From NCBI GenBank assembly GCA_041747855.1, contig JBGTEJ010000055.1, forward strand, positions 3,909-67,908: a stretch of 64,000 nucleotides of DNA, in the 5' to 3' direction. Of the stretch, positions 328-17,457 are shown one piece after another. The notes under the pieces are model-generated. The model saw only the letters and a list, made by a program, of their open reading frames with translations. It made no database searches and was not told where the DNA came from. Position numbers and translations under genes: made by a program. How positions within the stretch are numbered: position 1 is the stretch's first letter; every line of letters starts with the position of its first letter. Source of the stretch: Acidimicrobiia bacterium. Lineage in GTDB: Bacteria > Actinomycetota > Acidimicrobiia > Spongiisociales > ZC4RG35.

Positions 328-375
328 GTGGAGCTGAGGGGATTTGAACCCCTGACCCCTTGACTGCCAGTCAAG
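328..375 (-). repeat. displaced copy of the 3' part of tRNA-Ala (distal att site of the island)
   Basis: 328-375 is identical base for base to 13983-14030. 47 of the 48 nt lie in the tRNA, from the discriminator back to the 5' strand of the anticodon stem. No 5' half of a tRNA follows it. Confidence 0.9.
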
Positions 376-479
376 ATCAGGGGGTTTCGACCACCTGGGA
401 GAACTTAGAAAATGGTGCTCTGAACAGGGGTTTCGTCTCTCGTTGGCTCTCGGCGTTTTCCAGCGTTTTTCATTCTCCC

Positions 480-497
480 GCGGACTTTCCGCGGACT
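480..497 (+). promoter_or_regulatory. two phased GCGGACT repeats (putative integrase arm-type sites, left arm)
   Basis: GCGGACT at 480-486 and 491-497 (11-nt spacing), about 105 nt inside the left att copy. The same heptamer recurs near the other two att copies. Confidence 0.45.
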
Positions 498-520
498 CTG
501 CCCCGACCTGTCCCGAGAGC

Positions 521-2224
521 TTAGGGACCTTCACCTGCCATCTTCGTGGCCAACTTGTACGCCTTCCGTGCCGAGGCCCCCAGTGATTTCAGTTTCCCCT
601 CATTCTTGAAGTCTTTCTTGAAGTCATCGGCCTCTCCGAGGTCGTCATGTCGCTCTGACATCGCCGCAGCTCCGATATACGCCCACCGTGACAGGACCTT
701 GCCGAGATCAGGATCCGAGAGTGCTTTCGCCGGGTCGCCGAGGATTGCGGCGCCGTCCCCCGCCGCCTCGCGGGCGATCTGACCGACCAAATAGCACGCG
801 ATTAACTTGGTCAACAACCAACTGGACCTATAGATCGCCGGAAAATGGGCCTTCTGCTGTTGAACAGCGGCGCGAATCTCGTCAGCTAGCACAATGTGGT
901 GCGCCGAGATGCGCTCGGAGAAGATGTGAGGGTGGTTCTCGGATTCGAAGAGCGATAGCTTCTTGACTGCTAGCCAGGGCCACTCATTGAAGATCGCACA
1001 TAGGATCTGTGCAGCGTCGTCGTTTCTAATGACCCTGGCGGTGCTGGGAGCTACCGAATCTGGGCGCGTCTCATAGAAGATCCCGGGGAATTCTGCCTCG
1101 AACTCGCGGAGAAGGCGCAGTTGCGGACCGCTATTCGCCATCAGGTTCCGGGGGTTCACCGCAGTCTGCGTGTTGGAGCGCCGGCTGACTTCTTTTTCGA
1201 GCAGCGGCCTTCCGGCAACTTCAACGACTTTGACCGCGACTCGAAGGGCACTGGTGAGCTGGCCATCCACGAGGCCACGTTGGAATGCGAGTACCGACTG
1301 TGCCCCGTTCACTACCGATGGATTGTGCACGCTCAGAATGTCGCCCTTGACCTCGAAGCGATCACAAATCACGGTAAGCCCGTTGTGATAGGCAAGGAAG
1401 TCCAGATGTTCGGACTCGGTCGCGATCGCTCGATCGAGACCCTTGCTTACTTTGTTCGCCCGGAGTTGGTGACGCACATTGAGGGCGAACAGCCACCGAT
1501 CGTGAATCCCCGGCCACGCGGCGATGGCCTCCGCCGTCACGGGGATGATTGCCACACGGTTGGGGGGATCACCCGAAATGAGCAGTTCAGTCTGATCCAC
1601 AAAGATCTCGATCGTCCCCTGCAGACGCTCCGGCGACCGTACCGACTCCGCCAATGGGCCCAGCTCATTGATCGTCCACACATCGAGGTAGCCGGCACCG
1701 CTTGTATCGCGGACGCTCTCCACCTTGCTAGCGGCGTCAGTGGTAAGTCGACCGCTTGTGATCAGGACCAGCCGGACGCGAATGCTCTCTGGATCGCGCT
1801 GAAGCTTCGCCTCGAGACCGAGGTCTTCAACCAATTTGCGAAGCGACGGTTCCAGCTTTGCCGCTAGCAGCCTACGCAGCGTGATAGCGTCGGTAAAGTG
1901 AGCGGCCGCACCAGCAAGACGGTCCACATCTGTATCGCCAACCCACCCGTCGGGTCCCTCGGTGTATTTCGACTGGTAGATCACAAGCGTCTCTGGTTCG
2001 TCATCGCCGGACGAAGGCTCGACAAATAGCCCGTCGATGCCTTTGTCATCATCACCATCACACACGTAGTCGTAGGCGTCGATATCGCCTATGCCTACAA
2101 CGTTCCGGAGAAACCAGAGCAGAAGTACGGACCTTGGCTTGGCCAAGCCTCCCGACTCGTCAGTAGTGGCCTGGGCGCCCAGAGTCTTGTAATAGGCCTT
2201 CTGCTTGGCGCTCGACACTTGCAT
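521..2224 (-). CDS. AIPR-family abortive-infection-like protein
   Basis: 567-aa ORF with ATG start. N-terminal VCDGDDDKGIDGLF and central NGLTVICD...VVNGAQS motifs resemble the AIPR (abortive infection phage resistance) family as I remember it. Confidence 0.6.
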   Translation of the reverse strand: MQVSSAKQKAYYKTLGAQATTDESGGLAKPRSVLLLWFLRNVVGIGDIDAYDYVCDGDDDKGIDGLFVEPSSGDDEPETLVIYQSKYTEGPDGWVGDTDVDRLAGAAAHFTDAITLRRLLAAKLEPSLRKLVEDLGLEAKLQRDPESIRVRLVLITSGRLTTDAASKVESVRDTSGAGYLDVWTINELGPLAESVRSPERLQGTIEIFVDQTELLISGDPPNRVAIIPVTAEAIAAWPGIHDRWLFALNVRHQLRANKVSKGLDRAIATESEHLDFLAYHNGLTVICDRFEVKGDILSVHNPSVVNGAQSVLAFQRGLVDGQLTSALRVAVKVVEVAGRPLLEKEVSRRSNTQTAVNPRNLMANSGPQLRLLREFEAEFPGIFYETRPDSVAPSTARVIRNDDAAQILCAIFNEWPWLAVKKLSLFESENHPHIFSERISAHHIVLADEIRAAVQQQKAHFPAIYRSSWLLTKLIACYLVGQIAREAAGDGAAILGDPAKALSDPDLGKVLSRWAYIGAAAMSERHDDLGEADDFKKDFKNEGKLKSLGASARKAYKLATKMAGEGP

Positions 2225-2453
2225 ACCTTACATTGACTTCTCAGATCGGGTTCTAAGACCATCGTATTCGGCGCAGACGGCGGGCGGACTTGTCGGATGC
2301 CAATTCCGTTCTGGCAACGGAGATGGATGATCTCAGGAGTCCCGCTATGGCAGGGAATTCCGGTCAGGGAGACCCTGCTGAGATCGAATAGGGTGATCAC
2401 TTCCATTTTTGACGTACGAAGAAGCGGACGTGCTGACACAATCCCATCTCAGA

Positions 2454-3329
2454 TTACGCACGAGGGTCCTCCTGATTAGCAAGGCTTCGCAGTTCCAGGC
2501 AGGCCTTGTACAAGACGCGCTCGAGTTCGAGCTCGGTGGGAATGCCGTCTCGCCGTCGGTATGCAGTCGTGGTGCCAGCGATCGGCTCGTAACAGTAAAG
2601 GCCGACCGCGTCGACGATCTGCTGGGCCGTATGCGCCCAGCGCACGGTCGCGGCGAAATCTGAGTCGCTCAGGACCCGGACGGCCAAGAACACATAGATC
2701 GTCGGAGGGTTTGCCCGCAACCATGTCGTCAGGTCGGACCCACCAGCGCCTCCACCGGCTGGCAGGTTTCCCTCAATCGTCTGTCGCCGGCTGTACTCGC
2801 CCTTAAGATCGATCGACTTGAATGCCAGTTCCTTGACTCGCTTCCCCACGTCCGCCGATCCACGTCGCCCTACTGGCTTCTGTTTTGGACTCAGCGCATG
2901 GCGGGGTGTGCCCATCATCTTCGCTTCAAGCAAGAAGCGGATCGGGCCCTCGGCCGGGTAGACACCATCCAGGTTGTGCTCAGGCACGATCAGCCCGGGA
3001 ACCTTGTTGCGTGTGTACAACCTGCCGATCTCGGAGCAATTCTCCAACAGTAAGGCAAGCAAGTCGTTGAAGAAATCCCCCTTGCCGTTCTGGATATCAG
3101 CGGAGAGCGCGGTCCGTTCGGAGTCCGTCAGAGAGGTGTCGGCTGTGGCCGCAAGATCTGTATCGAAGGCTGACATCGCGGCTAGGAAGCCCGACTCCAC
3201 TTGGTTCCAGCTAGCTGCGTTCGATGCGGCAGCAGCCGAGTAAAGCTCCCGCTGCGGCAGACAGCGCGGACTCGTGGCCACGACGTCGCTGATCTTTCGG
3301 GGCTGGCTTATCGGTTGCGCCACACTCAT
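2454..3329 (-). CDS. putative type II restriction endonuclease (PD-(D/E)xK-like)
   Basis: 291-aa ORF starting 22 nt downstream of the methyltransferase stop, same strand. NLDGVY ... LLEAKMMG fits a D...ExK nuclease core. No family recognised. Confidence 0.45.
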   Translation of the reverse strand: MSVAQPISQPRKISDVVATSPRCLPQRELYSAAAASNAASWNQVESGFLAAMSAFDTDLAATADTSLTDSERTALSADIQNGKGDFFNDLLALLLENCSEIGRLYTRNKVPGLIVPEHNLDGVYPAEGPIRFLLEAKMMGTPRHALSPKQKPVGRRGSADVGKRVKELAFKSIDLKGEYSRRQTIEGNLPAGGGAGGSDLTTWLRANPPTIYVFLAVRVLSDSDFAATVRWAHTAQQIVDAVGLYCYEPIAGTTTAYRRRDGIPTELELERVLYKACLELRSLANQEDPRA

Positions 3330-3351
3330 CCTTCGTTCGGCTCGGCACAGC

Positions 3352-5043
3352 CTAAGTCTCTAGCGACAACGCCACCAGCGACGGATCGAGGTCGAAGACA
3401 GATGAGGCTAGGTCAGTGGCAGCCTTCCGGTCACGGGTTCTAAATGCTTCGATCAACCCATGACGAGTTGGACCATTGATATCCGTGGGATCTGGAACTC
3501 TCATCCTTCGGATGTATTGCGCCTGGAAACGATAGGTTCCACCCCGCATCTTGACGCAATAGGCGCCTATCAAGGCATTCGCCACATCCGAGAGCAGGAG
3601 GCCACCGAGAACCTCGAGATCCCATTCTTCCGACACGATGAAGTACAGGTTGTGATGCGGGTAGCGATCACCTTTGTCGAGCACAGGATTGGAGCGAGCT
3701 TTGATGTCTGGCAGCACCAGCTTCTCACGCATCTGCAAGGTCGGATCGACCTTATCGATCGTGCGGTACCAAGAGTGTGGTCGTCGCCTCGCCACGTGGC
3801 GGCCCCGAAGTCTCTCCTCGTTGGCTTCGAAGTAGGCCCTCAGCCGTGGATAGTCCGCAAGGTCAACCAGGTCGTCATCCTTCCACGGGTTCACCAGGAA
3901 GTGTCCGGCCCAGTCTGCCCTTCCTCCGGCCGTGTCACGTGCAAGCAAGAGTGGTAGCAATCGATCTTCCTCGACAAGAGAGGTGTCCGAAGTGATGTAC
4001 ACCTCGTCGCAGCCAGTTGCCACACCAATTCCCACTCGGGTTGCCGTATTTCTGCTCTCGAGCAGTGGAAATCGACTTTCGAGTTCGGCGACCAGCGCCT
4101 GCCGTGCCGGGTTACCCGATGGCCACGATGCTTTGCCGGAGAACCACCTCTTGAGTCGAACACCATCGGCGGCACTGCGACTTATGGCTGGTGACTCTTC
4201 CTCGATCCAAGTACTCACGGCCTTAGCATCCACGGGACCGAATCCCGCGCGGGCGTCCACGACATTTACGCCTTCCTGGCTTCCTTGGCGGAGTACCACG
4301 ATCGCCGGGTAGGCGGACACCTCGTCCTCAAAGGCATCGACATCGTGCATGCTCACGACAGAGTCGATGGCGTAGCGTGAAGCAATAAGTTCCCGCAGCG
4401 CACCGCCGTACTGGTTATGCATCCACCGGTCGGCACAGATGAAGCCCAGTCTCCCACCGTCACCCAGCATCCGGAGGCCGACCTCGATGAACCCCACGTA
4501 GATGTCGCTGCGGCCCCGCATCGTCGGACAAGCGCGCCGGTATTCATCGGTAAGCGGGCGAGGCACATCCTCAAGTCGGATGTACGGCGGATTGCCCACG
4601 ACGAAGTCGGCACAAGCAATTGGATGAGGGTGGAGGAGAAAGTCGGCTGTCGTCACCCACCTCGAGGCGAGATTCTCCGAGAGGTCAATCGAGTAGCCCA
4701 GATCAGTAAGCTGCTGTATCACAGCCTTTCGAGCGAGCTCGACATTGGACTCCAGTAGGTCGAAGGCTCGAATGGCGCCACCAGTGGTCGCAAGATCCCT
4801 GTTGTTTCGATCACAGGCTTCAACGAGACGACTGACCATCGGATTGAGGAAGGCTCCGGTTCCGCAGGCGGGCTCGACGATGATCCGCCCACCGAGGTCC
4901 TCGTCAGGTCGATACCCGACAAGGTCCAAGATGAACTCGACCACCCAATGGCGGGTGAACACTTCACCGTAGTTGGACTGACCCAGCTCGTCGGCCGGGA
5001 GGACTACCGTCGGCAGGAGACTGAGCTGTGATGTGGCTTTCAT
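3352..5043 (-). CDS. N6-adenine DNA methyltransferase (gamma class, Eco57I/TaqI-like, with C-terminal specificity domain)
   Basis: 563 aa. SAM motif VEPACGTGAFL lies upstream of catalytic VVGNPPYIRLED. The C-terminal half (VGIGVATGCDEVYI) looks like a TaqI-type target recognition domain. Confidence 0.8.
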   Translation of the reverse strand: MKATSQLSLLPTVVLPADELGQSNYGEVFTRHWVVEFILDLVGYRPDEDLGGRIIVEPACGTGAFLNPMVSRLVEACDRNNRDLATTGGAIRAFDLLESNVELARKAVIQQLTDLGYSIDLSENLASRWVTTADFLLHPHPIACADFVVGNPPYIRLEDVPRPLTDEYRRACPTMRGRSDIYVGFIEVGLRMLGDGGRLGFICADRWMHNQYGGALRELIASRYAIDSVVSMHDVDAFEDEVSAYPAIVVLRQGSQEGVNVVDARAGFGPVDAKAVSTWIEEESPAISRSAADGVRLKRWFSGKASWPSGNPARQALVAELESRFPLLESRNTATRVGIGVATGCDEVYITSDTSLVEEDRLLPLLLARDTAGGRADWAGHFLVNPWKDDDLVDLADYPRLRAYFEANEERLRGRHVARRRPHSWYRTIDKVDPTLQMREKLVLPDIKARSNPVLDKGDRYPHHNLYFIVSEEWDLEVLGGLLLSDVANALIGAYCVKMRGGTYRFQAQYIRRMRVPDPTDINGPTRHGLIEAFRTRDRKAATDLASSVFDLDPSLVALSLET

Positions 5044-5187
5044 TGATCTGTTCCAAGTTACACGAGTGTGATCTTGGAGACGACCCTATCGCGGCACACC
5101 GACACATTCCCCGCGTAGGCGTTCGCGTTGGGCGGGATCGCAGCAATTGGGCTGAATCGGTCACAGTCGCCTGGGACAATCCCGGGC

Positions 5188-5949
5188 ATGGAACCGACTC
5201 GTTTCGCAATTGTTGGAGACATCCATGGCGAATTCCGAGCATTAGTCGAAGGTCTGGACGGCGCGCGGGAACTGTTCGGCCCCCTGGATTTCGTCCTGTC
5301 GGTGGGCGACGTGGAGGCAAACCGCACTCCCGAAGATGCCCAAGGCGTGGTCAGTCCAGAGAGGTACCGCAAGGTCGGAGACTTTCCCGAGGTGGTTTCG
5401 GGAAACCTCATACTCGGGTCGCCCTTCTACTTCATCGCCGGCAACCACAATCCGTACCCAGCCCTAGATGAACACGGACCTGGCCACTGGGTCGCAGACT
5501 GTCATTGGCTCGGCCGGTGGGGAGTAACGACCATCCACGGGATCCGGATCTCGTTCCTCTCAGGTATTCGGTCTCCGAAATACTCCGATACCTCCAAGCC
5601 CATCCGGACCGGTCCGAAGGTCAGGACCTACTGGCATCGATCTGAACTGGACGCCCTCATCAGGAAGTCATCGGAGGCTGGACCTATCGACGTGCTGCTG
5701 ACTCACGAATGGCCCGAAGGAATCGGAACGACTCGGCGTGGGCAGGAGGCCGGTCAGTCCGAAATCCGGCGGCTCGTCGAGACTGTGCGTCCGAAGGTCC
5801 ATGCCTGTGGACATATCCATCATCCGCTGCAGGCCACTATCGGGGGAACAACCGTCGTCTGCCTCGCCAAGGTGTCAAACCGCATCGGCGGCATCGCCGT
5901 GTTCGAGACGTGGAATGACGGGCTTCGGCGCCTCGACGACGCCCCTTGA
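5188..5949 (+). CDS. calcineurin-like metallophosphoesterase
   Basis: Motifs IVGDIHGE, VGDVEA, GNHNPY, THEWP and ACGHIHH in canonical order. The ORF track starts at TTG 5128; ATG 5188 (MEPTRFAIVGDIHG) is the more likely start. Confidence 0.75.
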   Translation: MEPTRFAIVGDIHGEFRALVEGLDGARELFGPLDFVLSVGDVEANRTPEDAQGVVSPERYRKVGDFPEVVSGNLILGSPFYFIAGNHNPYPALDEHGPGHWVADCHWLGRWGVTTIHGIRISFLSGIRSPKYSDTSKPIRTGPKVRTYWHRSELDALIRKSSEAGPIDVLLTHEWPEGIGTTRRGQEAGQSEIRRLVETVRPKVHACGHIHHPLQATIGGTTVVCLAKVSNRIGGIAVFETWNDGLRRLDDAP

Positions 5950-5989
5950 AGGAATGCTTCCAGCGGAATAGTCTCAGAATGTCAAGGAG

Positions 5990-6439
5990 TTAGCCCACCG
6001 CTCCGTGGCAGCGCTTGTACTTCGAGCCCGATCCACACGGGCACGGATCGTTCCGGCCGACCTTGACAACCGCAGATGCCGGCCGTGGCATGACTGGGGT
6101 GGGCTGCGTCTGAGTCACCACCCTCAGCCGTTGCTCCATGATCTCGATGTTGCGCTCCCTGGCATCGAGCATCCGTTGTCGCTTGGCGAACTCGACCTCA
6201 AGCTCGGCTAGGAACACCGGGCCATCGCCGAGGTCATCTACGACCGAGCGGAGCTCGTGCTGGATCAGGGCGGCGATCCCTCGACCCATTGAGACGCCGA
6301 GGGAGTCGCAATAGCTCTTCCACGCCGCCCACGTCGCTTCGGCTGCGGGAACTCGCACCATTTGCCAGATCTCGTCGTGGCCAAGACCGGAAAAGATCCT
6401 GCGATCGATCTTGGCGAGCGTACCGCGGTCAAAGTCCAT
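5990..6439 (-). CDS. SEC-C motif protein (C-terminal CPCGSG...C.H zinc knuckle), N-terminal part unknown
   Basis: 149 aa ending [24 protein letters not shown] start preceded by GGGGAGAGG. Confidence 0.6.
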
Positions 6440-6451
6440 CAGCCTCTCCCC

Positions 6452-6467
6452 TGTCTACATGTAGACA
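6452..6467. promoter_or_regulatory. perfect 16-bp palindrome TGTCTACATGTAGACA (putative operator)
   Basis: Self-complementary 16-mer directly upstream of the RBS and ATG of the SEC-C gene. Confidence 0.4.
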
Positions 6468-6860
6468 TGCCGCAACTTGTTGCATGTGCGTGTGTCTTTT
6501 GAGGGGGTCGGTACGCGAGGCGCGTGAGCCTCGCGACAGACCGGTTCCGGATCGGTTCGGCGAGAACAATCAAATCTCGATTCGATGTTTGGATGGTTCG
6601 TTCCACATCCGCTCGCTGGTAGGTTCTCGTAAGCTGAGACGCCTCCATGTCTCCCCAAGGCGAATCGGACTTCTGCTTGCTGCGAAACCCCGCCCAGGAA
6701 CGACCGTCCGAGCCAGCCACCACACCTTCTGGCCGGTCTCATCGAACGCCCGGCCCGATCACAGCCTGCATTCCGGGCATGTGAGCCCAGCCGCAGAGGC
6801 TGATTCGGTAGTTGGAGATCCTGAGACACCGGTCATCAACCATTCCGATAGTCGGTCACC

Positions 6861-6903
6861 CTCCCAAACCACTCCCAGAACCGCTCCCAAACGACTCCCA
6901 ACC
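6861..6903 (+). repeat. four phased CTCCCA direct repeats (iteron-like)
   Basis: CTCCCA at 6861, 6872, 6884 and 6895 (spacing 11, 12, 11 nt) with similar flanks (aac/gaac/aac/acc), inside an ~870-bp stretch without convincing coding potential. Confidence 0.5.
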
Positions 6904-7313
6904 TGGCAGGGGGCCCGATCGAAGACTCATGGGAGCGAGGATGACGAAGAACCTCTGCCAGCGTGCGCAGACCCTTGTGGGAACCCCTTTCAGATCTCCC
7001 TGAGCGGGCCGGAAAGTCAAGGGTGATCGACGACATAGGGTGCGATCGACACGTGAGTTTCGACGCCGTACGTTCCGGCCGATGTTCGGAGATTCGGGTC
7101 GATAAGTCACCGGATCAAGAAGACCAGATCAACCTGTCAACCGAGTGTCAGAAACTCTCCCATGCTTCTCTGACCAGGCCCGATAAGGCATTCTCCAAGT
7201 CGACGGCATCAGACGCGATCACGTCGACCAGCCTGTTGTCTTTCCACAGCCGATCACCTACTGGGAGGGTGAATGAGAGTGAGTTGAGAGGGTGCCGACC
7301 CATCATCACGGGC

Positions 7314-7517
7314 ATGGAACACGACAATCGGCTCCTCACCGTCGAGGAACTCGCCGAGTACCTCGGTGTGCCGGTGACCACGCTCTACCAATGGCGGTAT
7401 CGAAGAGAGGGACCTCCAGGCTTCCGGGTCGGACGGCATCTCCGTTACCGGTGGAGCGACGTGCAGCGCTGGATCGAGAGTCGTCTTGAGGTTGGTCGCT
7501 CGGGTCGAGTGTCGTAG
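7314..7517 (+). CDS. xis: excisionase-family helix-turn-helix DNA-binding protein
   Basis: MEHDNRLLTVEELAEYLGVPVTTLYQWRYRREGPPGFRVGRHLRYRWSDVQRWIE matches the excisionase/MerR-type HTH pattern. It is the first gene of a plus-strand string ending in int. The ORF-track N-terminal extension (6963-) does not look coding. Confidence 0.7.
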   Translation: MEHDNRLLTVEELAEYLGVPVTTLYQWRYRREGPPGFRVGRHLRYRWSDVQRWIESRLEVGRSGRVS

Positions 7518-7574
7518 GCGTGATGTAGGGTGGCTTCCGAGAGCCACAACCCGCATCGTGGTGGAGGTCTATTG

Positions 7575-7814
7575 ATGCCAGGTCGAATATCTAGCTCCCT
7601 GCTTGAACAGCTCGTTGGTGTGAACTGTCCCGCTTGCCAATTCGGGTTCGAAGTCGAGGTGGCCGATGCAGCTTGTCAGGTCTGGCGGTGGTGCCCATGT
7701 TGCAGGTCACGGATTCGTCTTATGGAGCCCGGTGGTGAGGTACATGGAGCCATGGAAGAGGTCGAATCGGCGATGAGGGAGTTCCAGAAGAACCTCGGGA
7801 GGATGTTCAGATGA
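7575..7814 (+). CDS. small zinc-ribbon protein (CxxC ... CxCC)
   Basis: CPACQ...(20 aa)...CPCC. GGAGG lies 8 nt before ATG 7575. The stop overlaps the next start (ATGA at 7811-7814). Confidence 0.5.
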   Translation: MPGRISSSLLEQLVGVNCPACQFGFEVEVADAACQVWRWCPCCRSRIRLMEPGGEVHGAMEEVESAMREFQKNLGRMFR

Positions 7815-8770
7815 GGTTCAGGGAGGCCCTCCAGGTTCAATTACAGGAGAGATACCGGCGCCTCTACAAAAGTGAGTGGACCACATTCGAAGTCAACGTC
7901 AGATTCTTCCTGCAGTGGATTGACCGGGTCGCAGCGCTTCGATCAATCGTTGACTCACTTCGAAAGAGCCATCCCGATCTCGACCCCACGGAGTGGTGGG
8001 GTGAGGTACAAAAGCGCAGGGCCTACGAAACACCTGAGACAGAGGAAGCAAGGGCCAAGCTCGTTCTGCATGCGCTCCATGACATCGCATTCACCGAGGG
8101 AGTCGATTTCACCAAACTGGTCTGGCCTCTAACCAGAGAGAGCAATTACAACGACTCCATTCGACAATTCTGTTCGCAGTGGGTCGAACCAGTTGTCGAA
8201 TATCTACAAGAGCGGCTCGGTGCCGAGAGTGACATGCTCTACCTGCTCGAGAGGTATCGGCGCCGCCTTGCGTGGTTCGAACGGGATCGGCTCTATGAGT
8301 TGTACCAGGCGGACACCTCGAAGGGCGAGGCCGTGTACGACCGAGATCTACGCATGTTCCTCTTCGAACAAGGCGTTGACTACCCATTCTCCCAACCCGA
8401 AGGACCGTCGGGGAAGGCTGACGTTATTGCCTTGGTCGATTCGGACGACCCGCTCACCTGCGAAGTGAAGCTGTTTGACGGAGATCGATACGGAGTCTCG
8501 TACCTGGCAAAAGGGGTCGGTCAGGCCGTCCGCTACGCGGAAGACTATGGCAAAACCGCGGCTCACCTCGTCATGTTCAACCTGACCGGGCATGCTCTGC
8601 AGCTCCCGTCTGACGATCTAGACGCTGGTTGGCCCCCTCGCATTGACATTGCTGGCGTGACCGTCTTCCTCGTCGTGGTCCAGGCTGCTCCGCGGCCCTC
8701 CGCGAGCAAATCTGGCAAGGCAAAGGCGGTCGAAGTCATCCGGTCAGATCTCGTGGCCGACATCCCATGA
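7811..8770 (+). CDS. hypothetical protein with C-terminal PD-(D/E)xK-like nuclease motif
   Basis: 319 aa. GKADVIALVDSDDPLTCEVKLFDG gives a D...ExK arrangement followed by a conserved-looking QAVRYAEDYG helix. The N-terminal ~190 aa look helical and have no recognisable family. Confidence 0.45.
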   Translation: MRFREALQVQLQERYRRLYKSEWTTFEVNVRFFLQWIDRVAALRSIVDSLRKSHPDLDPTEWWGEVQKRRAYETPETEEARAKLVLHALHDIAFTEGVDFTKLVWPLTRESNYNDSIRQFCSQWVEPVVEYLQERLGAESDMLYLLERYRRRLAWFERDRLYELYQADTSKGEAVYDRDLRMFLFEQGVDYPFSQPEGPSGKADVIALVDSDDPLTCEVKLFDGDRYGVSYLAKGVGQAVRYAEDYGKTAAHLVMFNLTGHALQLPSDDLDAGWPPRIDIAGVTVFLVVVQAAPRPSASKSGKAKAVEVIRSDLVADIP

Positions 8771-8797
8771 AGACCTAGCTGGCGAAAGGAGTCGACG

Positions 8798-9925
8798 ATG
8801 GCGCATATGAGAAGGAAGGGTTCGGGTCAGTGGCAGGTTCGGTACCGGGACCCATCCGGCATTGAGCGAGCCCGAAACTTCCACCGGAAAGCGGATGCCG
8901 AGAAGTTCCTGGTGACCGTCGAGGCGGACAAAGTACGAGGGATGTGGGCGGATCCTCGCCTGGCAAAGATCACCGTTGCCGAGTGGTTGCCTACGTGGCA
9001 GGAGAGCAGGGTCCACCTTCGACCTTCGACGCGTGCGATGTCGGAGTCACTTCTGCGGAATCACGTGATCCCCTACTTCGGTGACCGGCGTCTCGGCTCG
9101 GTGACTCCAACGGTCGTCCAGGGGTTTGTTGCTCACCTCGAGGAGAAGGGTCTGGCGCCGTCGACGATCCGCCAGTCCTACCTGCTGGTCGGGGGCCTAT
9201 TCTCCTCGGCGCTCGAATCCGACCTCATCGTCCGCTCTCCCTGCCGTGGGATCAAGCTGCCGAAGAGCTCTCAGACCGAGGTGCGTTTTCTCACCACTGA
9301 AGAGGTGACCGATCTCGCAGAGGTGATCGATGACCGCTATCGAGCCCTTGTGCTGACAGCCGCGTACGCCGGCTGTCGGTTCGGAGAGCTTGCCGGTCTA
9401 AAGACACACCGTCTGGATCTGCTCAGGCGAAGTCTCACAGTCGCCGAAGCGCTCTCCGAGGTGCGTGGACAAGTTCGGCTCGCTCCTCCTAAGACCGCGG
9501 CAGCTCGGCGCCAGCTAGCGTTGCCCAAGTTCCTAACTGAAGAACTGAATCACCACTTGGCTACATGGCCACCCAGTGCGGAGGGGTTCGTGTTTACAGC
9601 ACCTCAAAGTGGCCCACTTCTTCGCCGCAACTTCCGGAGGCGCACGTGGCTACCTGCAGTGAGAGCCTCGGTTCGCGAGCCTTTGCGATTCCACGACCTG
9701 CGGCACACTCATGCAGCGATGCTGATCGCCCAAGGCGAGCACCCGAAGGTCATCCAGAATCGACTCGGACACTCTTCGATCAAGGTAACGCTGGACACCT
9801 ATGGCCACCTCTTTGAGGGGCTCGATGAGGCCGCAGCCGAGCGTCTCGATGCGACATTCCTTCGGACGCCTGCGGAAGTTGCGTTGACTGCAAACCGAGG
9901 GGAAGTTCGACAGGTTCGTCAGTAA
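8798..9925 (+). CDS. int: tyrosine recombinase / phage-type integrase
   Basis: 375 aa. AAGGAG RBS before the ATG. C-terminal RFHDLRHTHAAMLIAQG...LGHSSIKVTLDTYGHL carries the R..HxxR..Y catalytic signature, and there is an N-terminal SAM-like arm-binding region. Confidence 0.9.
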   Translation: MAHMRRKGSGQWQVRYRDPSGIERARNFHRKADAEKFLVTVEADKVRGMWADPRLAKITVAEWLPTWQESRVHLRPSTRAMSESLLRNHVIPYFGDRRLGSVTPTVVQGFVAHLEEKGLAPSTIRQSYLLVGGLFSSALESDLIVRSPCRGIKLPKSSQTEVRFLTTEEVTDLAEVIDDRYRALVLTAAYAGCRFGELAGLKTHRLDLLRRSLTVAEALSEVRGQVRLAPPKTAAARRQLALPKFLTEELNHHLATWPPSAEGFVFTAPQSGPLLRRNFRRRTWLPAVRASVREPLRFHDLRHTHAAMLIAQGEHPKVIQNRLGHSSIKVTLDTYGHLFEGLDEAAAERLDATFLRTPAEVALTANRGEVRQVRQ

Positions 9926-9980
9926 GAGCCTGCAGCCCTCCACATCGATTGGATCTTCGTGTTCGTGGCGACCTCGACGG

Positions 9981-10820
9981 CTACGACGGAAAGATCTTGG
10001 CTCGCTGGATACCGAACAGGATGCCGGGACCGCCCACGTGGATGACCGTGGCCTCGCCTTGTCCCTCGATTGATATGGGCCGAAGGGCCTGGGGGTTAGT
10101 CATGAATATCAGTGCTCGATCGGTAATCACGACAGAACCTCCCCAGCCTGACCAGATGCCGGCGACACGAACAACACCGGTCCGAACGACCGCTATGTCA
10201 AAGACGGGAAGACCATCAGCCACGGCCCGAGGAGAGTGCCTCAGCAGCTGGTTGTATGCCCACAAAGGGAGGAGACGCTGCCAACCTGAAAGGTTGACAC
10301 GTAGGCGGCCGGGTCGTTGCTCATGTTCGACCTCGCCAGCGATGTAGGTCGTCGTATTGTGACGGATCTCCAGCAGCTTGTGGCCCCGCAGATCGTGGAT
10401 GTCAGCGTTGACCATCAACAATCGACCGCTCTCGTCGAGGTTAAAAGACAAGCTCTGGAGCGAATCGAAGTCGAATATCGCGAACGGCGCCTCACTGGTA
10501 GTTGAAATCGAACCGACGAGAAGCTTATTGAGTGAGGACGGGGGGACCTGGACACCGCCCCACTGCTGCGGTTCCGCAGTCTTCCACTCATACAGCGCGG
10601 TGTCGGTCAGTCTCAATTGACCACGGGTCACGGCGTCATGGCACGCCGGGCACAGAGCGATCATGTGTGCCTGGTCATGAGTCTGATAGATCGCCCATTC
10701 CCTGATGTGGTGCAGCTCGATGAGCGTATTAGGGCATGCGGGGTTCGAGCATTGGCCCGCGGCCTCATCAAGTAGCGCTGACTTAACCGAAGTCGGTACT
10801 GCTGGGCGATGCTGAGCCAT
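9981..10820 (-). CDS. HNH endonuclease-domain protein with ~190-aa uncharacterised C-terminal domain
   Basis: CSNPACPNTLIELHHIREW...HMIALCPACHDAV (Cys4 plus HH..N/H pattern) in the first 80 aa. The remainder has no recognisable motif. Confidence 0.65.
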   Translation of the reverse strand: MAQHRPAVPTSVKSALLDEAAGQCSNPACPNTLIELHHIREWAIYQTHDQAHMIALCPACHDAVTRGQLRLTDTALYEWKTAEPQQWGGVQVPPSSLNKLLVGSISTTSEAPFAIFDFDSLQSLSFNLDESGRLLMVNADIHDLRGHKLLEIRHNTTTYIAGEVEHEQRPGRLRVNLSGWQRLLPLWAYNQLLRHSPRAVADGLPVFDIAVVRTGVVRVAGIWSGWGGSVVITDRALIFMTNPQALRPISIEGQGEATVIHVGGPGILFGIQRAKIFPS

Positions 10821-10954
10821 ACGAAGGATTCTGCTCCCACCCGAGATTCATCCAGAATCCACCCGGCCTCCGCTGTCACGGACCTTGGGCTCCTACGGCA
10901 CTTCCTGGAGGGTGGCGACGGGCCCTCCGAGGAGCACTTCGACACCGGCTCTCC

Positions 10955-10982
10955 GCGGACTCCCGCGGATTTTCCTCGAACT
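10955..10982 (+). promoter_or_regulatory. three phased GCGGACT-type repeats (putative arm-type sites, module A right arm)
   Basis: GCGGACT 10955, GCGGATT 10965, TCGAACT 10976. The first repeat starts exactly 101 nt before the att core at 11056, the same distance as in module B. Confidence 0.5.
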
Positions 10983-11055
10983 CTGGTCCGAACCATAGGC
11001 TCGAAGTCCAAAAGCGAGACGGCGACACCCCAGGTAGGTGGGGGTTTTATGGGGA

Positions 11056-11100
11056 TGGAGCTGAGGGGATTCGAACACCTAACCCCTAGACTGCAAGTCA
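11056..11100 (-). repeat. diverged tRNA-Ala 3' fragment (internal att copy separating modules A and B)
   Basis: 40 of 45 nt identical to 13984-14028. One mismatch changes the anticodon position from GGC to TGC. No tRNA 5' half is present. Confidence 0.8.
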
Positions 11101-11497
11101 TTGGAGCGGTTTCGCTGCATGTTCCCGACAGCCCTGCAGTACCTGTGCTCGCCGAGTACTCTGCGGTTATAACTGTTCAGATAGACGTTGAGCTCCAGCG
11201 GGACGCCGCTCTGCGCGGAGTTGTCGGTTCTGTGGGCAAGCAAACTGGCGGCCATATCGCTGTCGCGATCCTCGACTCCGACTGGGCAACGAGCGGCCGC
11301 GGTGAATATGTGGACCCATCAGATCCGGTCGTTCGCATGGCAGCTCACCTGGCCATCAACGAGCATGACGGCGAGTATCCGTGGCCACTAGTCCAGGCAA
11401 AGGGACTACAGCACTATCGGATCGATTCATCCTTTTTCGAGATGGCAGAACGGCGGCTTGGCAGGAAGTGACTGAGTTGCACTAACCGGGGAAGTCG

Positions 11498-11746
11498 TCA
11501 GCAAGATGGTGCCACTTCTCGCCTCGTTTGGGCGTGGTAGCGCTGTAGTAGCTCAGCGTGCTTCGGCGAGATCAAAGCGGTCGACCGCATGTTTTGGAAC
11601 AACTCGTATCGTTCAGCCAACGGCAAGAACTTCTCGTATTCCGCGGCGAACTTGTTGTGCCTGAGCACGGCGAGTTCTTCGGACGAGAGCTGCGCCCTAA
11701 CGAGCCCGGTGTAGGTGTCCGGATGGGGAATCGTCGCTTCGTCCAC
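11498..11746 (-). CDS. hypothetical 82-aa ORF (weak)
   Basis: GTG start only and no recognisable motif. It may be a gene fragment. Confidence 0.25.
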   Translation of the reverse strand: MDEATIPHPDTYTGLVRAQLSSEELAVLRHNKFAAEYEKFLPLAERYELFQNMRSTALISPKHAELLQRYHAQTRREVAPSC

Positions 11747-11926
11747 CTACTTGACGATTCAGTAGGGGTTGCGGAAGTAGTGCCTCAGAAGAGGCTCCCA
11801 TTTCGGGTACTGAAGCTAGTAGATGTATGCAATCTCTCTGACCTGCTTGTGGAGCTTCTCGAGTCATCGGCAGCTAACGGGTCTTCGTTGATCGGGAGGC
11901 GCTTACCGACCCGTCCTGCCGACAAT

Positions 11927-12724
11927 TCATTCGAGGATGCGACGATGGTCGAGCTGACCGACTCGCTCTCCTTGTCGAGCCAAGTAGCGGCGTTGAGTCA
12001 CGCCCCACGCGTCTTCAATGAGGTTGCCTATCGCGAACGCCATATCTTGTTGGAATCCATCGTCTGGTACCTGGTCGAGTTCGAAGTGCCAGAGCAGATT
12101 GTCGTCAGCGCAGCCTCCTACGGAGTTGTCCCACGAACCCGGCTCAGCCCAGCCTTCAGCAACGTTGCCAAGAAATGCGCCCTTGGTTGAGACGAGACCG
12201 ATAGTCAACTGCCAAGGAGTCGGAAGGCCAACGCGGCGGTGAAGCTGGACTGTGAACTTCAGCATCGCCCAGGTGTAGGTAACGATGGAGGCAAGGGCGA
12301 AGGTCCGGACGGTTTCGCCCCGATCATCCTGGTACTCACGCGCGCCGCTACTTCCAAGACCGAGCTCGATGGCGCCAGAGCGGTGAACACCAAGGAATCT
12401 CCTCCATGCCCCATCCCTGCCGTGATCATTAACCACGACCGCGGCATGAGCTGTGGGGAATGTCTGGTAGCCAAACCTCACACCTCGACCTTCCACTTTC
12501 ATTTCCTGTTCCGCTTTGAACCAGTCCCAAAAGTCTCCATCGAACCACAAAGCATCTCGTTCTGGGTCAGCGGGGAGCAATACGGCTTGCACGGTGAGTG
12601 ATTCGAGCCGTGTTGCCAATCCAACGCCGCCGAAGTCCGATCGTCGAACGTTATCGAGACCGTGGCGGTCGAGAGTCCTACGCCAACGGGCTCGGATTAG
12701 CTCGGTGTCGGCGAGAGACGTCAT
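11927..12724 (-). CDS. hypothetical protein, 265 aa, no recognisable domain
   Basis: ATG 12722-12724 overlaps the TGA of the upstream gene (ATGA). Composition looks protein-like and Trp-rich (WFDGDFWDWF). Confidence 0.6.
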   Translation of the reverse strand: MTSLADTELIRARWRRTLDRHGLDNVRRSDFGGVGLATRLESLTVQAVLLPADPERDALWFDGDFWDWFKAEQEMKVEGRGVRFGYQTFPTAHAAVVVNDHGRDGAWRRFLGVHRSGAIELGLGSSGAREYQDDRGETVRTFALASIVTYTWAMLKFTVQLHRRVGLPTPWQLTIGLVSTKGAFLGNVAEGWAEPGSWDNSVGGCADDNLLWHFELDQVPDDGFQQDMAFAIGNLIEDAWGVTQRRYLARQGERVGQLDHRRILE

Positions 12725-13848
12725 TGCGTCATCTGGCGGCGAAGCCGTACTGTGAAGTCTTCCGCCAGTTCGTTGGTCTGTTGGAGAAGAGCGGCTCGTC
12801 TGCGGACCGGCGGGGACAGCACGACCACGGCCTGGTCGTTATTCCTAAAGCCCATCGTTGCCATGTTTGGGTTGCGCTCTTGTTCGATGCGCGTCCGCCA
12901 AGGCATGTACCCCGCGCCCCGGAGGGCGATTACAGGAGCAGCGTGGCTCAACCGCTCAGCTGAGTCGACATGGTTGAGGAGTCGAGCACAGAAGCGAAGA
13001 CCACTGGCGATTCGGTTCGAGACGTCCTCCTCGATCACAGATCTGATGCCCGACGCCCAGGTGCTCTGATCCACGGCAGGCTGAACGATCAGGAGGTTGG
13101 CAGTCTCGTCGATCGACACCAGACCCGAGCCTCGCTCCTGAGTCAATTGAATCGCGTCCCCCTTGACCGAAACCTCAGTGCCGACCGCCGACGAAAGCAC
13201 CGAATCACTGCCGGTGAGGGCCTCGGACAGAAGAAACCTTCCCAACACATCCTCATCGAGTTCGGCCGGCCGTAGTACCGAGCGCAGCGGTCCGCTTGCG
13301 ACCGCCAGTATGAGGTCAGGGCCACCAGAATGGAGCTCCGTTGGTAGCAGGCCTCGAGCCCGATCAACAAGCTCGGCATGGTCTAGGGGAGCCGCCTCGT
13401 TTGCGAGCGCAAATTCGTAGATGGCACGCATGACTTTGTCGCGTAGCTCAGATGCGTCACTGAATCCGGCAGTGAAGTGCCCACGTTCCCATCCCCTCAC
13501 TTCGCGTATGAACTCTGCCTGCTGCTCCTCGGGGTCAATGCCATCCTGTATGAACACAAGGACCGGTGTCGCATCACGAGCCTCGCGATACTCCTCGTGA
13601 GTTGCCGAGAGTCCAGATGCTTGAACTGCGCCGTACTCAGCACCAAGAATCAGCAGAAGGACGTCCGCATCGCGAACTTCAGCCAGACAGGCTTGCTGTG
13701 GGGTATTTGAAGTCGCGCTGAAGTCTTCGGCCCGAACTGGCGTGTGGCGAAGGTTGGCAACCGCAGACGCGGCGGCGTCTCGAAGGGCTTCCTGGCCACG
13801 GATGAGAGAACTTATGAACACCTGCATCGGACCCATTATCTCTCGCAC
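12721..13848 (-). CDS. DUF4062-like (TIR / nucleoside 2-deoxyribosyltransferase-like fold) N-terminal domain protein with unknown C-terminal half
   Basis: QVFISSLIRGQEALRDAA...PVRAEDF...DADVLLLILGAEYG...SATHEEYREA...PVLVFIQD follows my recollection of the DUF4062 consensus (VFISS..., acidic residue, GxxYG, S.T..EY, hydrophobic strand). The GTG at 13848 is doubtful; ATGs at 13836 or 13827 are likelier starts. Confidence 0.6.
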   Translation of the reverse strand: MREIMGPMQVFISSLIRGQEALRDAAASAVANLRHTPVRAEDFSATSNTPQQACLAEVRDADVLLLILGAEYGAVQASGLSATHEEYREARDATPVLVFIQDGIDPEEQQAEFIREVRGWERGHFTAGFSDASELRDKVMRAIYEFALANEAAPLDHAELVDRARGLLPTELHSGGPDLILAVASGPLRSVLRPAELDEDVLGRFLLSEALTGSDSVLSSAVGTEVSVKGDAIQLTQERGSGLVSIDETANLLIVQPAVDQSTWASGIRSVIEEDVSNRIASGLRFCARLLNHVDSAERLSHAAPVIALRGAGYMPWRTRIEQERNPNMATMGFRNNDQAVVVLSPPVRRRAALLQQTNELAEDFTVRLRRQMTQ

Positions 13849-13882
13849 CTATGACAGAACCGCGGTCAATTGGGGCCGTTCC

Positions 13883-13910
13883 TCGGACTCCTGCGGACTC
13901 TTCGCGGACT
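13883..13910 (+). promoter_or_regulatory. three phased GCGGACT repeats (putative arm-type sites, module B right arm)
   Basis: TCGGACT 13883, GCGGACT 13893, GCGGACT 13904. The first starts exactly 101 nt before the tRNA 3' end at 13984. Confidence 0.5.
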
Positions 13911-13983
13911 CCTGGCCAAGACAGCGTCCGCGAGATCATCCGTCGGGACAGCAAACCCCCAGGTAGAAGAGGGTTTTTAGGAG

Positions 13984-14057
13984 TGGAGCTGAGGGGATTT
14001 GAACCCCTGACCCCTTGACTGCCAGTCAAGTGCTCTGCCAGGCTGAGCTACAGCCCC
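13984..14057 (-). tRNA. tRNA-Ala (anticodon GGC)
   Basis: Reverse complement is GGGGCTGTAGCTCAGCCTGGCAGAGCACTTGACTGGCAGTCAAGGGGTCAGGGGTTCAAATCCCCTCAGCTCCA. It has a 7-bp acceptor stem with G3:U70, anticodon loop CTGGCAG and a TTCAAAT T-loop. CCA is not encoded. Confidence 0.92.
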
Positions 14058-14108
14058 TTTCGGGATTCGGCATTTTAGCTGGAACCACGGTCTCGGAGAA
14101 TCTGGGCA

Positions 14109-15071: not shown

Positions 15072-15358
15072 GGGGACATCATCCTAAATATTCAGGACAG
15101 ACGCTGTCCGCTATGCCCCATATATTCGAGGATGTGAACTGCAAAGACGGCAGATAAAGAAGGGACCGAAGTGATCATGTTCATCGGATACGAGGAAGCG
15201 AAGAACCTGCAAAGGGAGCGCGTCGAACGATCCCTCCACCGCTACCAGTTGATCACTGCACTCTCCGTCGGCCACCCGGCCGTACCATCGGCCGAAGCCG
15301 AGGTCGTGGAGCTGCCACATGCCGAAGCGTGTGAGTGCGCCGAGCAGATAGGTGCCTG

Positions 15359-16296: not shown

Positions 16297-16310
16297 TTCG
16301 ACACTGTGCT

Positions 16311-17385: not shown

Positions 17386-17457
17386 CTCAACCTCCCATTG
17401 CGAACGTAATGACCGCCGATGACAAGTTCCAGGGGGTCGCGACTAAGTTCTCTATGG

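Follow-up and report, generated by a model that had tools for sequence, protein, structure and literature searches.

A composite island in tRNA-Ala(GGC) of an Acidimicrobiia bacterium: probable site-specific accretion of a complete element and a decayed remnant of one integrase family

Anatomy of the island

The stretch of DNA analysed (the window, 64,000 nt) carries close to its left end an island of 13.7 kb, integrated at an intact tRNA-Ala(GGC) gene and bounded by att copies derived from that gene (Table 1). The sequence-only reading had described the outer copies as identical. This was borne out by a repeat search and by ARAGORN, with zero mismatches between the distal copy C3 and the copy C1 inside the tRNA. 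The bases bordering the two differ on either side (327 G versus 13982 A; 376 A versus 14031 T), so the perfect outer repeat is exactly 48 nt, starting at the 3′ end of the tRNA and reaching the 5′ strand of the anticodon stem. A third copy, C2, had been read as 11056-11100 with five mismatches. These were found at 11072, 11077, 11081, 11088 and 11096, and the alignment extends further, with three edge mismatches at 11055, 11101 and 11102. The substitutions in C2 affect both stems as well as the anticodon loop and T loop. The resemblance is not due to chance, since the ~110 nt to the left of C2 and of C1 are also homologous. The left flank inside the window is 327 nt only, and another att copy could lie further left.

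Table 1. Features of the composite island, with positions in the window.
Feature	Position	Strand	Description or evidence
Distal att copy C3	328-375	.	displaced 48-nt 3′ part of tRNA-Ala(GGC); host DNA to left
Module 1 P arm	376-520	+	two CGCGGACT repeats, 479-486 and 490-497; putative integrase arm-type sites
AIPR / AbiU-like abortive-infection protein, cargo	521-2224	-	Pfam AIPR 7e-23; PADLOC AbiU 1e-22
Candidate type II restriction endonuclease, cargo	2454-3329	-	PADLOC REase_II 7e-10
Type II N6-adenine DNA methyltransferase, cargo	3352-5043	-	Pfam Eco57I, N6_Mtase; PADLOC MTase_II 2e-186
Calcineurin-like metallophosphoesterase, cargo	5128-5949	+	Pfam Metallophos 4e-15; PADLOC PDC-S10 9e-12
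SEC-C motif protein, conserved family core	5990-6439	-	Pfam SEC-C
Conserved core ORF	6289-7026	+	47-95% aa identity in relatives
HTH_17 excisionase-like protein	6963-7517	+	Pfam HTH_17 5e-15; phrog_66 excisionase
Two inserted genes (94 aa, 319 aa) between excisionase-like gene and integrase	7530-8770	+	weak PDC-M14B match (PADLOC)
Tyrosine integrase	8798-9925	+	Pfam Phage_integrase 2e-18, SAM_3; phrog_1 5e-70
HNH nuclease, cargo beside integrase	9981-10820	-	Pfam HNH 2e-4
Module 1 P′ arm	10934-11054	+	repeats at 10954, 10964, 10975 with 0, 1, 2 mismatches
Doubtful 140-aa ORF	11049-11471	+	
Inner att copy C2	11055-11102	.	40/48 match; decayed; joins modules 1 and 2
Decayed left part of module 2	11103-11926	.	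doubtful ORF and AbiC-like pseudogene
AbiC-like pseudogene	11498 to ~11830	-	putAbiC match
265-aa gene, partner in DUF4062 cassette	11927-12724	-	81.5% identical in L085
DUF4062 (TIR-like NADase family) protein, predicted defence-type	12721-13848	-	Pfam DUF4062 7e-22, residues 9-90
Module 2 P′ arm	13862-13982	+	repeats at 13882, 13892, 13903
Intact tRNA-Ala(GGC)	13983-14057	-	ARAGORN; 3′ 48 nt (13983-14030) = att copy C1

Searches with Pfam, PADLOC and PHROGs confirmed that the genes between the outer copies are of the accessory type described earlier (integrase, excisionase, restriction-modification, AIPR, HNH and hypotheticals). The right flank also agreed with its earlier description as a WYL regulator followed by rsfS-nadD: a WYL gene and a cytidylyltransferase-family gene, read as nadD, were found, and RsfS adjoins nadD in public gene calls of the same sequence. 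The left-flank gene had been called a cyclase-domain gene; just 50 of its codons lie inside the window, and its motif FLFSDIEGST appears cyclase-like by eye, but Pfam scores nothing in these codons.

Module 1 (376-11054) is a complete element of an integrase family that is common among Acidimicrobiia. In the fixed layout of the family, to which it conforms, att is followed by P arm, cargo, SEC-C protein, excisionase-like protein, integrase, more cargo, P′ arm and tRNA. Its integrase is the sole recombinase of the island. The reading frame is intact, the R, H-x-x-R, H and Y motifs are in their usual places in the translation read by eye, and the protein is 90-93% identical to many other copies. 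Homologues of the SEC-C protein lie upstream of the integrase in L089, L091-L094 and L113-L115 (these and similar labels denote related loci). Family-profile searches with the core ORF gave no match. The real start of the excisionase-like gene is probably later than 6963. In relatives this gene directly precedes the integrase, and nucleotide homology to them ends at 7489. Over its full length the P arm is 85-89% identical to those of L085 and L102 (89% for L085, with perfect repeats), and with L089 and L099 mostly the repeat stretch matches. The integrase-HNH order is also present in L117 (82% aa identity); since HNH follows the integrase there too, the right end of module 1 is native to that element. 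The P′ arm ends in a hairpin and T run (~11026-11048), and its repeats, beside C2, are the most degenerate in the family.

Module 2 (11103-13982) is a 2.9-kb piece with its own P′ arm. Neither an integrase nor an excisionase nor a P arm was found in it, and no arm-repeat pair lies to the right of C2. Reading through three in-frame stops raises the putAbiC score of its pseudogene from 31.7 bits, for the ORF alone, to 50.8 bits. The cassette of the DUF4062 and 265-aa genes is intact, and the latter always lies directly downstream of the former with a 4-nt overlap (L085, L111, L112). In L085-L088, L096 and a JGI contig, the same cassette genes (81-89% identity) closely follow the integrase; the sequence to the right of C2 and the corresponding place in L085 show no conservation. 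The P′ arm runs on from the DUF4062 upstream region, as it does in L085, carries one imperfect repeat and ends in a hairpin and T run (~13955-13978). Module 2 is a truncated remnant of another family member, comprising its tRNA-proximal end and having lost the P arm, excisionase and integrase.

The element family and occupancy of its site

Of 11 right-hand ends scored, 10 have a triple CGCGGACT repeat with 10-11-nt spacing that begins 101 nt before att, both window ends among them; the sole departure is 103 nt, in L099. On the other side, five elements (module 1, L085, L102, L089 and L099) have a CGCGGACT pair whose start lies 151 nt after that of the left att copy. Across the window, repeat pairs occur only in the three arms of the island, apart from one isolated pair on the other strand. 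The repeats would serve as integrase arm-type sites. The two P′ arms of the window share 58% identity, inside the 48-74% range between different family members, and each is at least as close to an arm elsewhere, the C1 arm to that of L114 (66%) and the C2 arm to that of L103 (61%). No earlier description was found of this arm motif (three in P′, two in P, at 101/151 nt) or of the core of SEC-C protein and ORF, and both are, as far as checked, specific to the Acidimicrobiia family and undescribed.

In L102 and L085 the left att copy departs from the tRNA sequence at the 5′ strand of the anticodon stem and nowhere else; therefore the crossover lies 3′ of that point, and we infer that it takes place in the anticodon loop. 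C2 is altered in both candidate strand-exchange regions, which are this loop and the T loop.

Comparison of the tRNA-Ala(GGC) locus among relatives, proposed in the sequence-only reading along with composition profiles, revealed both empty and single-element states, all in other species: four related loci are empty (L006, L007, L013, L028) and at least four relatives carry single elements with different cargo (L089, L099, L102, L114). No empty site from the same species was found. The island tRNA is 100% identical to that of L006, L007 and L028, where the site is empty in all three. Both element ends are visible in L089, L099 and L102, while L114 adjoins rsfS-nadD and shows its right end. Public contigs end inside the shared tRNA sequence and are thus uninformative about junctions. 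The two-module composite was found in no other genome, and in 90%-identity clusters of the HNH, 140-aa ORF, 265-aa, DUF4062 and AIPR proteins the window's own protein stands alone in each. L085 has a decayed P′ arm relic directly upstream of DUF4062, lacking an att copy. Towards the tRNA it has another segment that lacks an integrase and bears a P′ arm of its own; L085 also carries a TrwC-like relaxase as cargo. The composition of the island departs from that of the host, both in GC (59.2% versus 60.0-62.5% in host windows of equal size) and in tetranucleotide distance to the host profile (0.171 versus 0.062-0.090).

The locus thus has the properties of a tRNA-integrated island, namely a tRNA whose 3′ part is repeated, a tyrosine integrase, variable occupancy and distinct composition, and those of an accretion array, in which three direct att copies bound two modules from distinct elements of the same site specificity. 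No relaxase, type IV secretion or FtsK-like translocase gene was detected among the larger ORFs of the window with Pfam, PHROGs, NCBIfam and PADLOC, and on these searches the island does not qualify as an ICE, IME or AICE. PHROGs matches in the island are confined to integrase, excisionase, HNH and families of unknown function (the DUF4062 protein), and IMG/VR held no relatives by protein or by att/P-arm junction. With no capsid, packaging or phage replication genes and no viral-contig relatives found in these searches, the island does not qualify as a prophage or phage satellite.

Origin and mobility of the composite

Two members of one tyrosine-integrase family, whose target is the 3′ half of tRNA-Ala(GGC), probably gave rise to the composite by site-specific accretion, with C2 since decayed; if mobile, the composite would move as a 13.7-kb unit. 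Module 1 would be the complete element and module 2 the remnant of a second family member, joined at C2, which would represent a decaying scar. Since C2 differs from the outer copies in each of the two candidate strand-exchange regions, functional recombination most likely relies on the outer sites, namely C3 with the module 1 P arm and C1 with the module 2 P′ arm. In an island that is still mobile, the integrase and the excisionase-like protein would release a single circle of 13.7 kb, and the captured DUF4062 cassette would travel along. Judging from the perfect outer repeats and the preserved outer arms, movement of the array as one unit, if it moves at all, appears most likely. The sequence-only reading had proposed two related elements at one tRNA, with an inner copy allowing excision of either module. 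The first proposal holds in so far as the pieces come from two family members, each with its own P′ arm at a fixed distance from att; it does not hold for two complete elements, as one integrase and one excisionase-like gene are present, both in module 1, and module 2 is a remnant. Separate excision of either module is doubtful because C2 is mutated in the anticodon and T loops; its adjoining arm repeats are degenerate and the arm sites of module 2 are one-sided.

The decayed piece lies next to the tRNA and the complete piece is distal. Had module 1 integrated in situ into the old distal copy, a crossover in the anticodon loop would be expected to leave the older sequence in C3, not C2. Contrary to this expectation C3 is pristine, which speaks for the composite having arrived as a unit or for C2 having decayed later.

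A very different origin, in which a single element had its right end (P′ arm and att, ~160 bp) duplicated internally with no second element involved, would account for the single integrase, and also for the 265-aa and DUF4062 genes being internal cargo in L085 and L096, where no att separates them from the integrase. The two P′ arms are, however, no closer to each other than to those of other members, which as good as rules out such a duplication; in L117 an HNH gene and then a P′ arm form a native element end, and DUF4062 with a P′ arm is a separate ancestral end, kept as a relic in L085. We regard it as very improbable. Module 2 could instead be an integrase-less mobile element in its own right, integrated later at the tRNA-proximal site by the module 1 integrase in trans and excising alone via C2 x C1. 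Its att copies on both sides and good P′ arm are in keeping with this, there are known cases of elements that lack an integrase and are mobilised in cis or trans (PMC5704250), and L085 has an integrase-less, P′-arm-bearing segment in the same tRNA-proximal position. Such an origin is nevertheless unlikely, given that P-arm repeats are absent to the right of C2, that both C2 loops are mutated, that the left part of the module consists of a pseudogene and a doubtful ORF, that the sequence right of C2 is not conserved in L085, and that the same cassette is ordinary internal cargo at other loci.

There is also a slight chance that the whole array is an immobile fossil decaying in place. The module 2 pseudogene, the decayed C2, the imperfect repeats in both P′ arms, the insertion between the excisionase-like gene and the integrase, and the want of a composite copy elsewhere would all agree with decay. 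Against it, the outer 48-nt repeats have stayed perfect although C3 is free of tRNA selection, the integrase is intact in its catalytic motifs and 90-93% identical to many other copies, and the P arm is conserved with L085 down to its perfect repeats.

More tentatively, and with perhaps one chance among several, the window could represent an intermediate in a recurrent route by which the family gains tRNA-proximal cargo, L085 being a later stage. A resident element would be reduced to a remnant of cargo, P′ arm and tRNA; the cut may have been integrase-mediated, between the distal att and a pseudo-site inside the cargo, leaving an arm-less att abutting the cargo. A newcomer would then enter the naked distal copy, because the P′ arm of the remnant occupies the true tRNA site. 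Finally, the inner att would decay and the defence cassette of the remnant would become permanent cargo. L085 would fit the later stage by its att-less P′ arm relic and its further integrase-less segment with a fresh P′ arm.

Current concepts are unchanged by these results. Their value is that of an annotated, clearly bounded case of accretion from the Acidimicrobiia, a class with few studies and mostly without cultured members, which supplies att sites and candidate defence genes for testing. Base-level boundaries are available for the att core, for both arms and for the arm-site motif. A whole family of tRNA-Ala(GGC) elements shuttling defence genes is defined with them, with cargo comprising restriction-modification, AbiU-like, HNH or Mrr nuclease and DUF4062 NADase cassettes, and the island shows a way in which a newcomer may take over the defence cassette of an integrase-less remnant.

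Comparison with known systems

Accretion with a decayed remnant is a well-known route of island growth, and the island is of this known kind. In tRNA-integrated islands with lambda-like tyrosine integrases, attP carries the 3′ part of the tRNA from the anticodon loop (the tRNA sublocation class). The present island resembles these in its 48-nt identity block from the 3′ end to the anticodon stem, in an integrase close to the tRNA-proximal end, preceded by an excisionase-like gene, and in arm motifs flanking the core. It differs from them in the CGCGGACT arm motif at 101/151 nt and in the core of SEC-C protein and ORF.

The tandem-accretion model, in which an integrative element is joined to a decayed one that lacks an integrase (CIME), comes from ICESt1/ICESt3 of Streptococcus thermophilus (PMC5704250). 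In both systems three att copies lie in direct orientation at the 3′ end of a target gene, recombination genes are present in one module and lost from the other, and the modules derive from related elements of the same site specificity. By analogy, the expected outcome would also be similar, with capture of the genes of the decayed module and movement as one unit. Unlike ICESt1/ICESt3, the island belongs to an uncultured Acidimicrobiia bacterium and uses tRNA-Ala(GGC) as its target, no conjugation or mobilisation genes were detected in it, and its inner att is diverged. In the strict definition a CIME retains both attL and attR in functional form (PMC5704250). Module 2 has arm sites on one side only and sits next to the tRNA; it is not a strict CIME, because P-arm repeats are missing to the right of C2 and the C2 loops are mutated. 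The order of the modules in the Streptococcus agalactiae example (PMC5704250) is the reverse of that in the island, where the decayed module is tRNA-proximal.

From its sequence, the DUF4062 protein of module 2 is placed in the TIR-like NADase family, as a predicted defence-type protein. Its DUF4062 domain aligns to residues 6-89 of KpSwz, with a weak match to the KpSwz structure; outside this domain, the C-terminal region included, there was no sequence match. Like Swarozyc and Evangelion (bioRxiv 10.64898/2026.05.01.722283, 10.64898/2026.06.25.731849), the protein has an N-terminal DUF4062 and a long C-terminal region, and its gene lies among defence-type genes on a mobile element. Those systems are described as single-gene, whereas DUF4062 of the island family is always paired with the 265-aa gene.

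Att copies and the insert at tRNA-Ala(GGC)

The outer att copies, C3 and C1, were identical at 48/48 nt in a repeat search, as the sequence-only reading had reported. The neighbouring bases differ on both sides, so the perfect repeat is exactly 48 nt, spanning the tRNA (located by ARAGORN) from its 3′ end through the 5′ strand of the anticodon stem. The inner copy, C2, matches at 40/48 positions, and alignment gave the same five mismatches that had been counted inside 11056-11100. C2 is no chance match, because the ~110 nt to its left and the ~110 nt to the left of the tRNA copy are homologous too. In tRNA orientation C2 reads AATGA CTTGCAG TCTAG GGGTT AGGTG TTCGAAT CCCCT CAGCTCCA; the anticodon loop and the T loop each carry one substitution, and the stems are broken. 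The possibility that C2 comes from the 3′ part of another functional tRNA was rejected: the loop reads TGC, yet both stems are broken.

Features of the island and its surroundings, with predicted recombination junctions (window positions)
Feature	Position	Strand	Remark
att copy C3	328-375		
AIPR/AbiU-like gene			between outer att copies
Type II restriction enzyme and methylase			between outer att copies
Metallophosphoesterase			between outer att copies
SEC-C protein			between outer att copies
Conserved ORF	6289-7026		no assigned function
HTH_17 excisionase-like gene			between outer att copies
Two genes, 94 and 319 aa	7518-8797 interval		319-aa product: weak PADLOC PDC-M14B match
Tyrosine integrase	8798-9925		sole one in island; catalytic motifs intact
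HNH nuclease gene			directly after integrase
Hairpin with T run	~11026-11048		GC-rich; points to tRNA
140-aa ORF	11049-11471	+	doubtful; right of C2; public gene calls
att copy C2	11055-11102		
82-aa ORF		-	right of C2; tail of AbiC-like gene
AbiC-like (PF16872) pseudogene	11498-~11830	-	
265-aa gene and DUF4062 gene (~368 aa)	11927-13848	-	right of C2
Hairpin with T run	~13955-13978		GC-rich; points to tRNA
att copy C1	13983-14030		
tRNA-Ala(GGC)	13983-14057	-	
WYL regulator and 157-aa gene	14109-15584	-	
Six-tRNA cluster	44266-46006	-/+	His, Arg, Gly, Pro minus; Lys, Leu plus
tmRNA	61013-61364		tag peptide AEDNFALAA
Predicted empty-site junction		+	GGGTGGGTATTTGCG + 48-mer + TGCTCTGCCAGGCTGAGC
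Predicted whole-array circle junction		+	...AGAGGGTTTTTAGGA + 48-mer + ATCAGGGGGTTTCGACC
Predicted module 1-only circle junction		+	...GGGGGTTTTATGGGG + C2/C3 hybrid + ATCAGGGGG
Predicted module 2-only circle junction		+	...TTTTTAGGA + C1/C2 hybrid + GGAGCGGTTTCGC

The island has a GC content of 59.2%, and same-size windows over the remaining 50 kb are higher in every case (60.0-62.5%). Measured by tetranucleotides, it lies 0.171 from the host profile; host windows lie at 0.062-0.090. For the WYL regulator adjoining the tRNA, the closest proteins (59-67% identity) come from Acidimicrobiia metagenome-assembled genomes. In four of these genomes (L006, L007, L013, L028), tRNA-Ala(GGC) comes next after the WYL gene; the tRNA is 100% identical in 3/4 and directly abuts ordinary genes (DUF6855, Na/H exchanger, chloride channel), with no integrase, second tRNA fragment or arm motif beside it. 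These empty-site relatives are different species in which the genes downstream of the tRNA differ from those of the window. Single elements occupy the site in L089, L099 and L102, so both empty and single-module states of the locus were recovered. The deviating composition and the empty sites together indicate that the island is a real foreign insert. An exact empty site with the window's left flank was not found; the nearest species in the genome collection share 59-67% WYL identity, and the 327 nt of left flank in the window are too short as a probe. In Logan, four contigs from this strain (L001-L004) break off at 14028 or 14010. These ends were rejected as alternative junctions, as they are explained by 31-mers common to other tRNA-Ala genes and to further elements of the family in the metagenome, and they therefore do not bear on excision.

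Variation extends to the 5′ side of the tRNA, since presence of the WYL and 157-aa genes, which in the window lie between the tRNA and rsfS-nadD, differs among loci. Both are absent from L114, where the tRNA lies ~20 nt from rsfS (L114 15402-15785). The gap from tRNA to nadD is only ~1.2 kb in L099 (8554-10585), and L005, L013 and L028 do have the WYL gene. L089 carries a second, unrelated integrase (29% identity) immediately past the 5′ side of the tRNA-Ala that its family element occupies; with the Prim-Pol, capsid, S78 protease and small-terminase genes that go with it, this region (12678-20917) looks like a phage satellite or small prophage.

The element family and the two modules

Homologues of the integrase at 70-93% identity are numerous in Acidimicrobiia contigs, and ~30 such loci were retrieved for comparison. 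A common anatomy was observed. At the left end, a 48-nt tRNA fragment is followed by a P arm carrying two copies of CGCGGACT, 151 nt from the fragment start. Variable cargo is then followed by the SEC-C protein, the conserved ORF of no assigned function, the excisionase-like gene, the integrase and 0 to 5 kb of further cargo. At the right end, a P′ arm carries three copies of CGCGGACT at 10-11-nt spacing, the first 101 nt before att (103 nt in L099), and a hairpin with a T run precedes the intact tRNA-Ala(GGC). Both ends are visible in L089 (9.6 kb), L102 (6.1 kb) and L099 (7.6 kb), the last having nadD on the far side of its tRNA. In L114 (integrase 93% identical) the element ends at a tRNA directly adjoining rsfS-nadD, a host neighbourhood as in the window. 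Altogether, counting the window, the element adjoins tRNA-Ala(GGC), intact or as its 48-nt 3′ part, at nine loci. In the 64-kb window paired copies of the arm motif are found at 479/490, 10954/10964 and 13882/13892/13903, and otherwise only as one isolated opposite-strand pair.

From these sequence patterns we infer that the repeats are putative integrase arm-type sites. The hairpin, found in the same place in L085, L102, L103, L106, L108 and L114, looks like a terminator that would keep element transcription from antisense entry into the tRNA. One member, L107 (329-376; integrase 78% identical, same P arm), lies beside a 3′ part reading as tRNA-Pro(GGG), which shares with the Ala site only the start of the anticodon loop (CTGG), the TCAAG stem strand and the T loop. 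This suggests a target switch within the family.

Module 1 (376-11054) is a complete family member. A P′ triple starts 101 nt before C2, the usual spacing, and the HNH gene (82% identity) follows the integrase directly and precedes the P′ arm in L117 as well; both arms and all core genes are therefore held between C3 and C2. In relatives the excisionase-like gene lies directly 5′ of the integrase; nucleotide homology of the window ends at 7489, and the 94-aa and 319-aa genes are inserted.

Module 2 (11103-13982) is what remains, after truncation, of a different family member. Homologues of its 265-aa and DUF4062 genes (81-89% identity) follow shortly after the integrase in L085-L088, L096 and a JGI contig. 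The L085 DNA upstream of DUF4062 retains three decayed arm repeats, continuous with upstream sequence common to the window, and DUF4062 with its P′ arm was therefore once an ancestral element end. No P-arm repeats were found in module 2 to the right of C2. The sequence there had no P-arm match, and it is not conserved with the sequence to the right of the tRNA-less L085 att copy; both readings of it were rejected. Reading through three in-frame stops raises the Pfam match of the AbiC-like pseudogene from 31.7 to 50.8 bits and widens its model coverage from positions 33-76 to 5-76. The 140-aa protein has its first codons within the tRNA-like C2, and its N-terminus is probably spurious; a homologue exists for the C-terminal part only (54% identity, opposite strand, in L103 cargo).

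In L085 (13580-13640, 16593-16638; integrase 82% identical) a DEAD-box helicase gene comes after the decayed P′ arm relic that lies upstream of DUF4062, and then a well-preserved P′ arm and an att copy of 46 nt. No tRNA 5′ half follows this copy, and the next 4.5 kb contain no tRNA. L085 may represent a further composite, or else an element integrated into a tRNA fragment.

Origin, crossover and order of events

The sequence-only reading had proposed two related elements integrated in succession. Pieces of two different family members are indeed present, but only one integrase was found and module 2 is truncated and without a P arm. An internal duplication of the right end was rejected on the arm identities: the two window arms are 58% identical, within the 48-74% seen between different family members, and each is closer to another locus, the C1 arm to L114 (66%) and the C2 arm to L103 (61%). 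Among the ORFs between the outer att copies there was no second integrase, relaxase, translocase or phage structural gene. A prophage or phage-satellite reading of the island was rejected on profile and viral-contig searches.

In L102 and L085 the left att copy departs from the tRNA sequence at a single place, the 5′ strand of the anticodon stem, which reads CCTGT and not CTTGA; the crossover therefore lies 3′ of that strand. The identity block ending at the anticodon stem and the symmetry of this stem about the 7-nt loop, taken with what is usual for tRNA-targeting integrases, point to a probable crossover in the anticodon loop. No other set in the family has arm repeats as poor as those of C2 (0, 1 and 2 mismatches). 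The arm next to C1 has a single imperfect repeat, provided that T counts as a match in the first position of the repeat, which it also occupies in L099 and L103. From these repeats and its loop and stem changes, we consider C2 a putative decaying scar and the outer sites the likely working recombination pair.

Two routes fit the data. By route (a), a resident element would have decayed to module 2, and module 1 would next have integrated into its distal, arm-less copy. By route (b), the composite would have formed earlier and arrived at the tRNA as a unit. With an anticodon-loop crossover, route (a) would leave the older sequence in C3, not C2. C3 is pristine and C2 mutated, which favours route (b) or a later decay of C2, as judged from the att sequences. 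The composite was not found in other genomes; the 90%-identity clusters of module-specific proteins hold the window's own protein alone. If the composite moves as a unit, only the empty-site and whole-array circle junctions are expected. A module 1-only or module 2-only circle junction would favour the earlier view that either module can be excised through C2.

Cargo and comparison with known systems

DUF4062 has recently been shown to be a TIR-like NADase in phage defence (bioRxiv 10.64898/2026.05.01.722283, 10.64898/2026.06.25.731849). The window protein shows a weak match (E 0.045) to the KpSwz structure, in its DUF4062 part. Together with the restriction-modification, AbiU-like and HNH genes, it marks the island, by predicted gene content, as a defence island. 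The 6289-7026 ORF and the 265-aa protein had no functional match in Pfam, PHROGs, NCBIfam, PADLOC or a PDB sequence search. The DUF4062 gene is followed by the 265-aa gene with a 4-nt overlap every time, in the window and in L085 (11656-13556), L111 (6001-7901) and L112 (6001-8090), and copies of the pair (64-89% identity) turn up in unrelated neighbourhoods of defence type (Abi_C, AbiJ, HEPN_Apea, CHAT, NYN). The published DUF4062 systems Swarozyc and Evangelion are described as single-gene, whereas the DUF4062 gene of the window is paired; the pair may be a two-gene variant.

Accretion in tandem, in which an incoming element joins a decayed integrase-less one and the whole array possibly moves, is an established model (PMC5704250). 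The island differs from it in host, in that transfer genes were not detected, and in the tRNA-proximal position of its remnant. It also departs from the strict definition of a cis-mobilizable element, as module 2 has lost one arm. The tandem of an incoming element and a decayed integrase-less remnant is shared, and the island is thus another instance of this already known accretion type.
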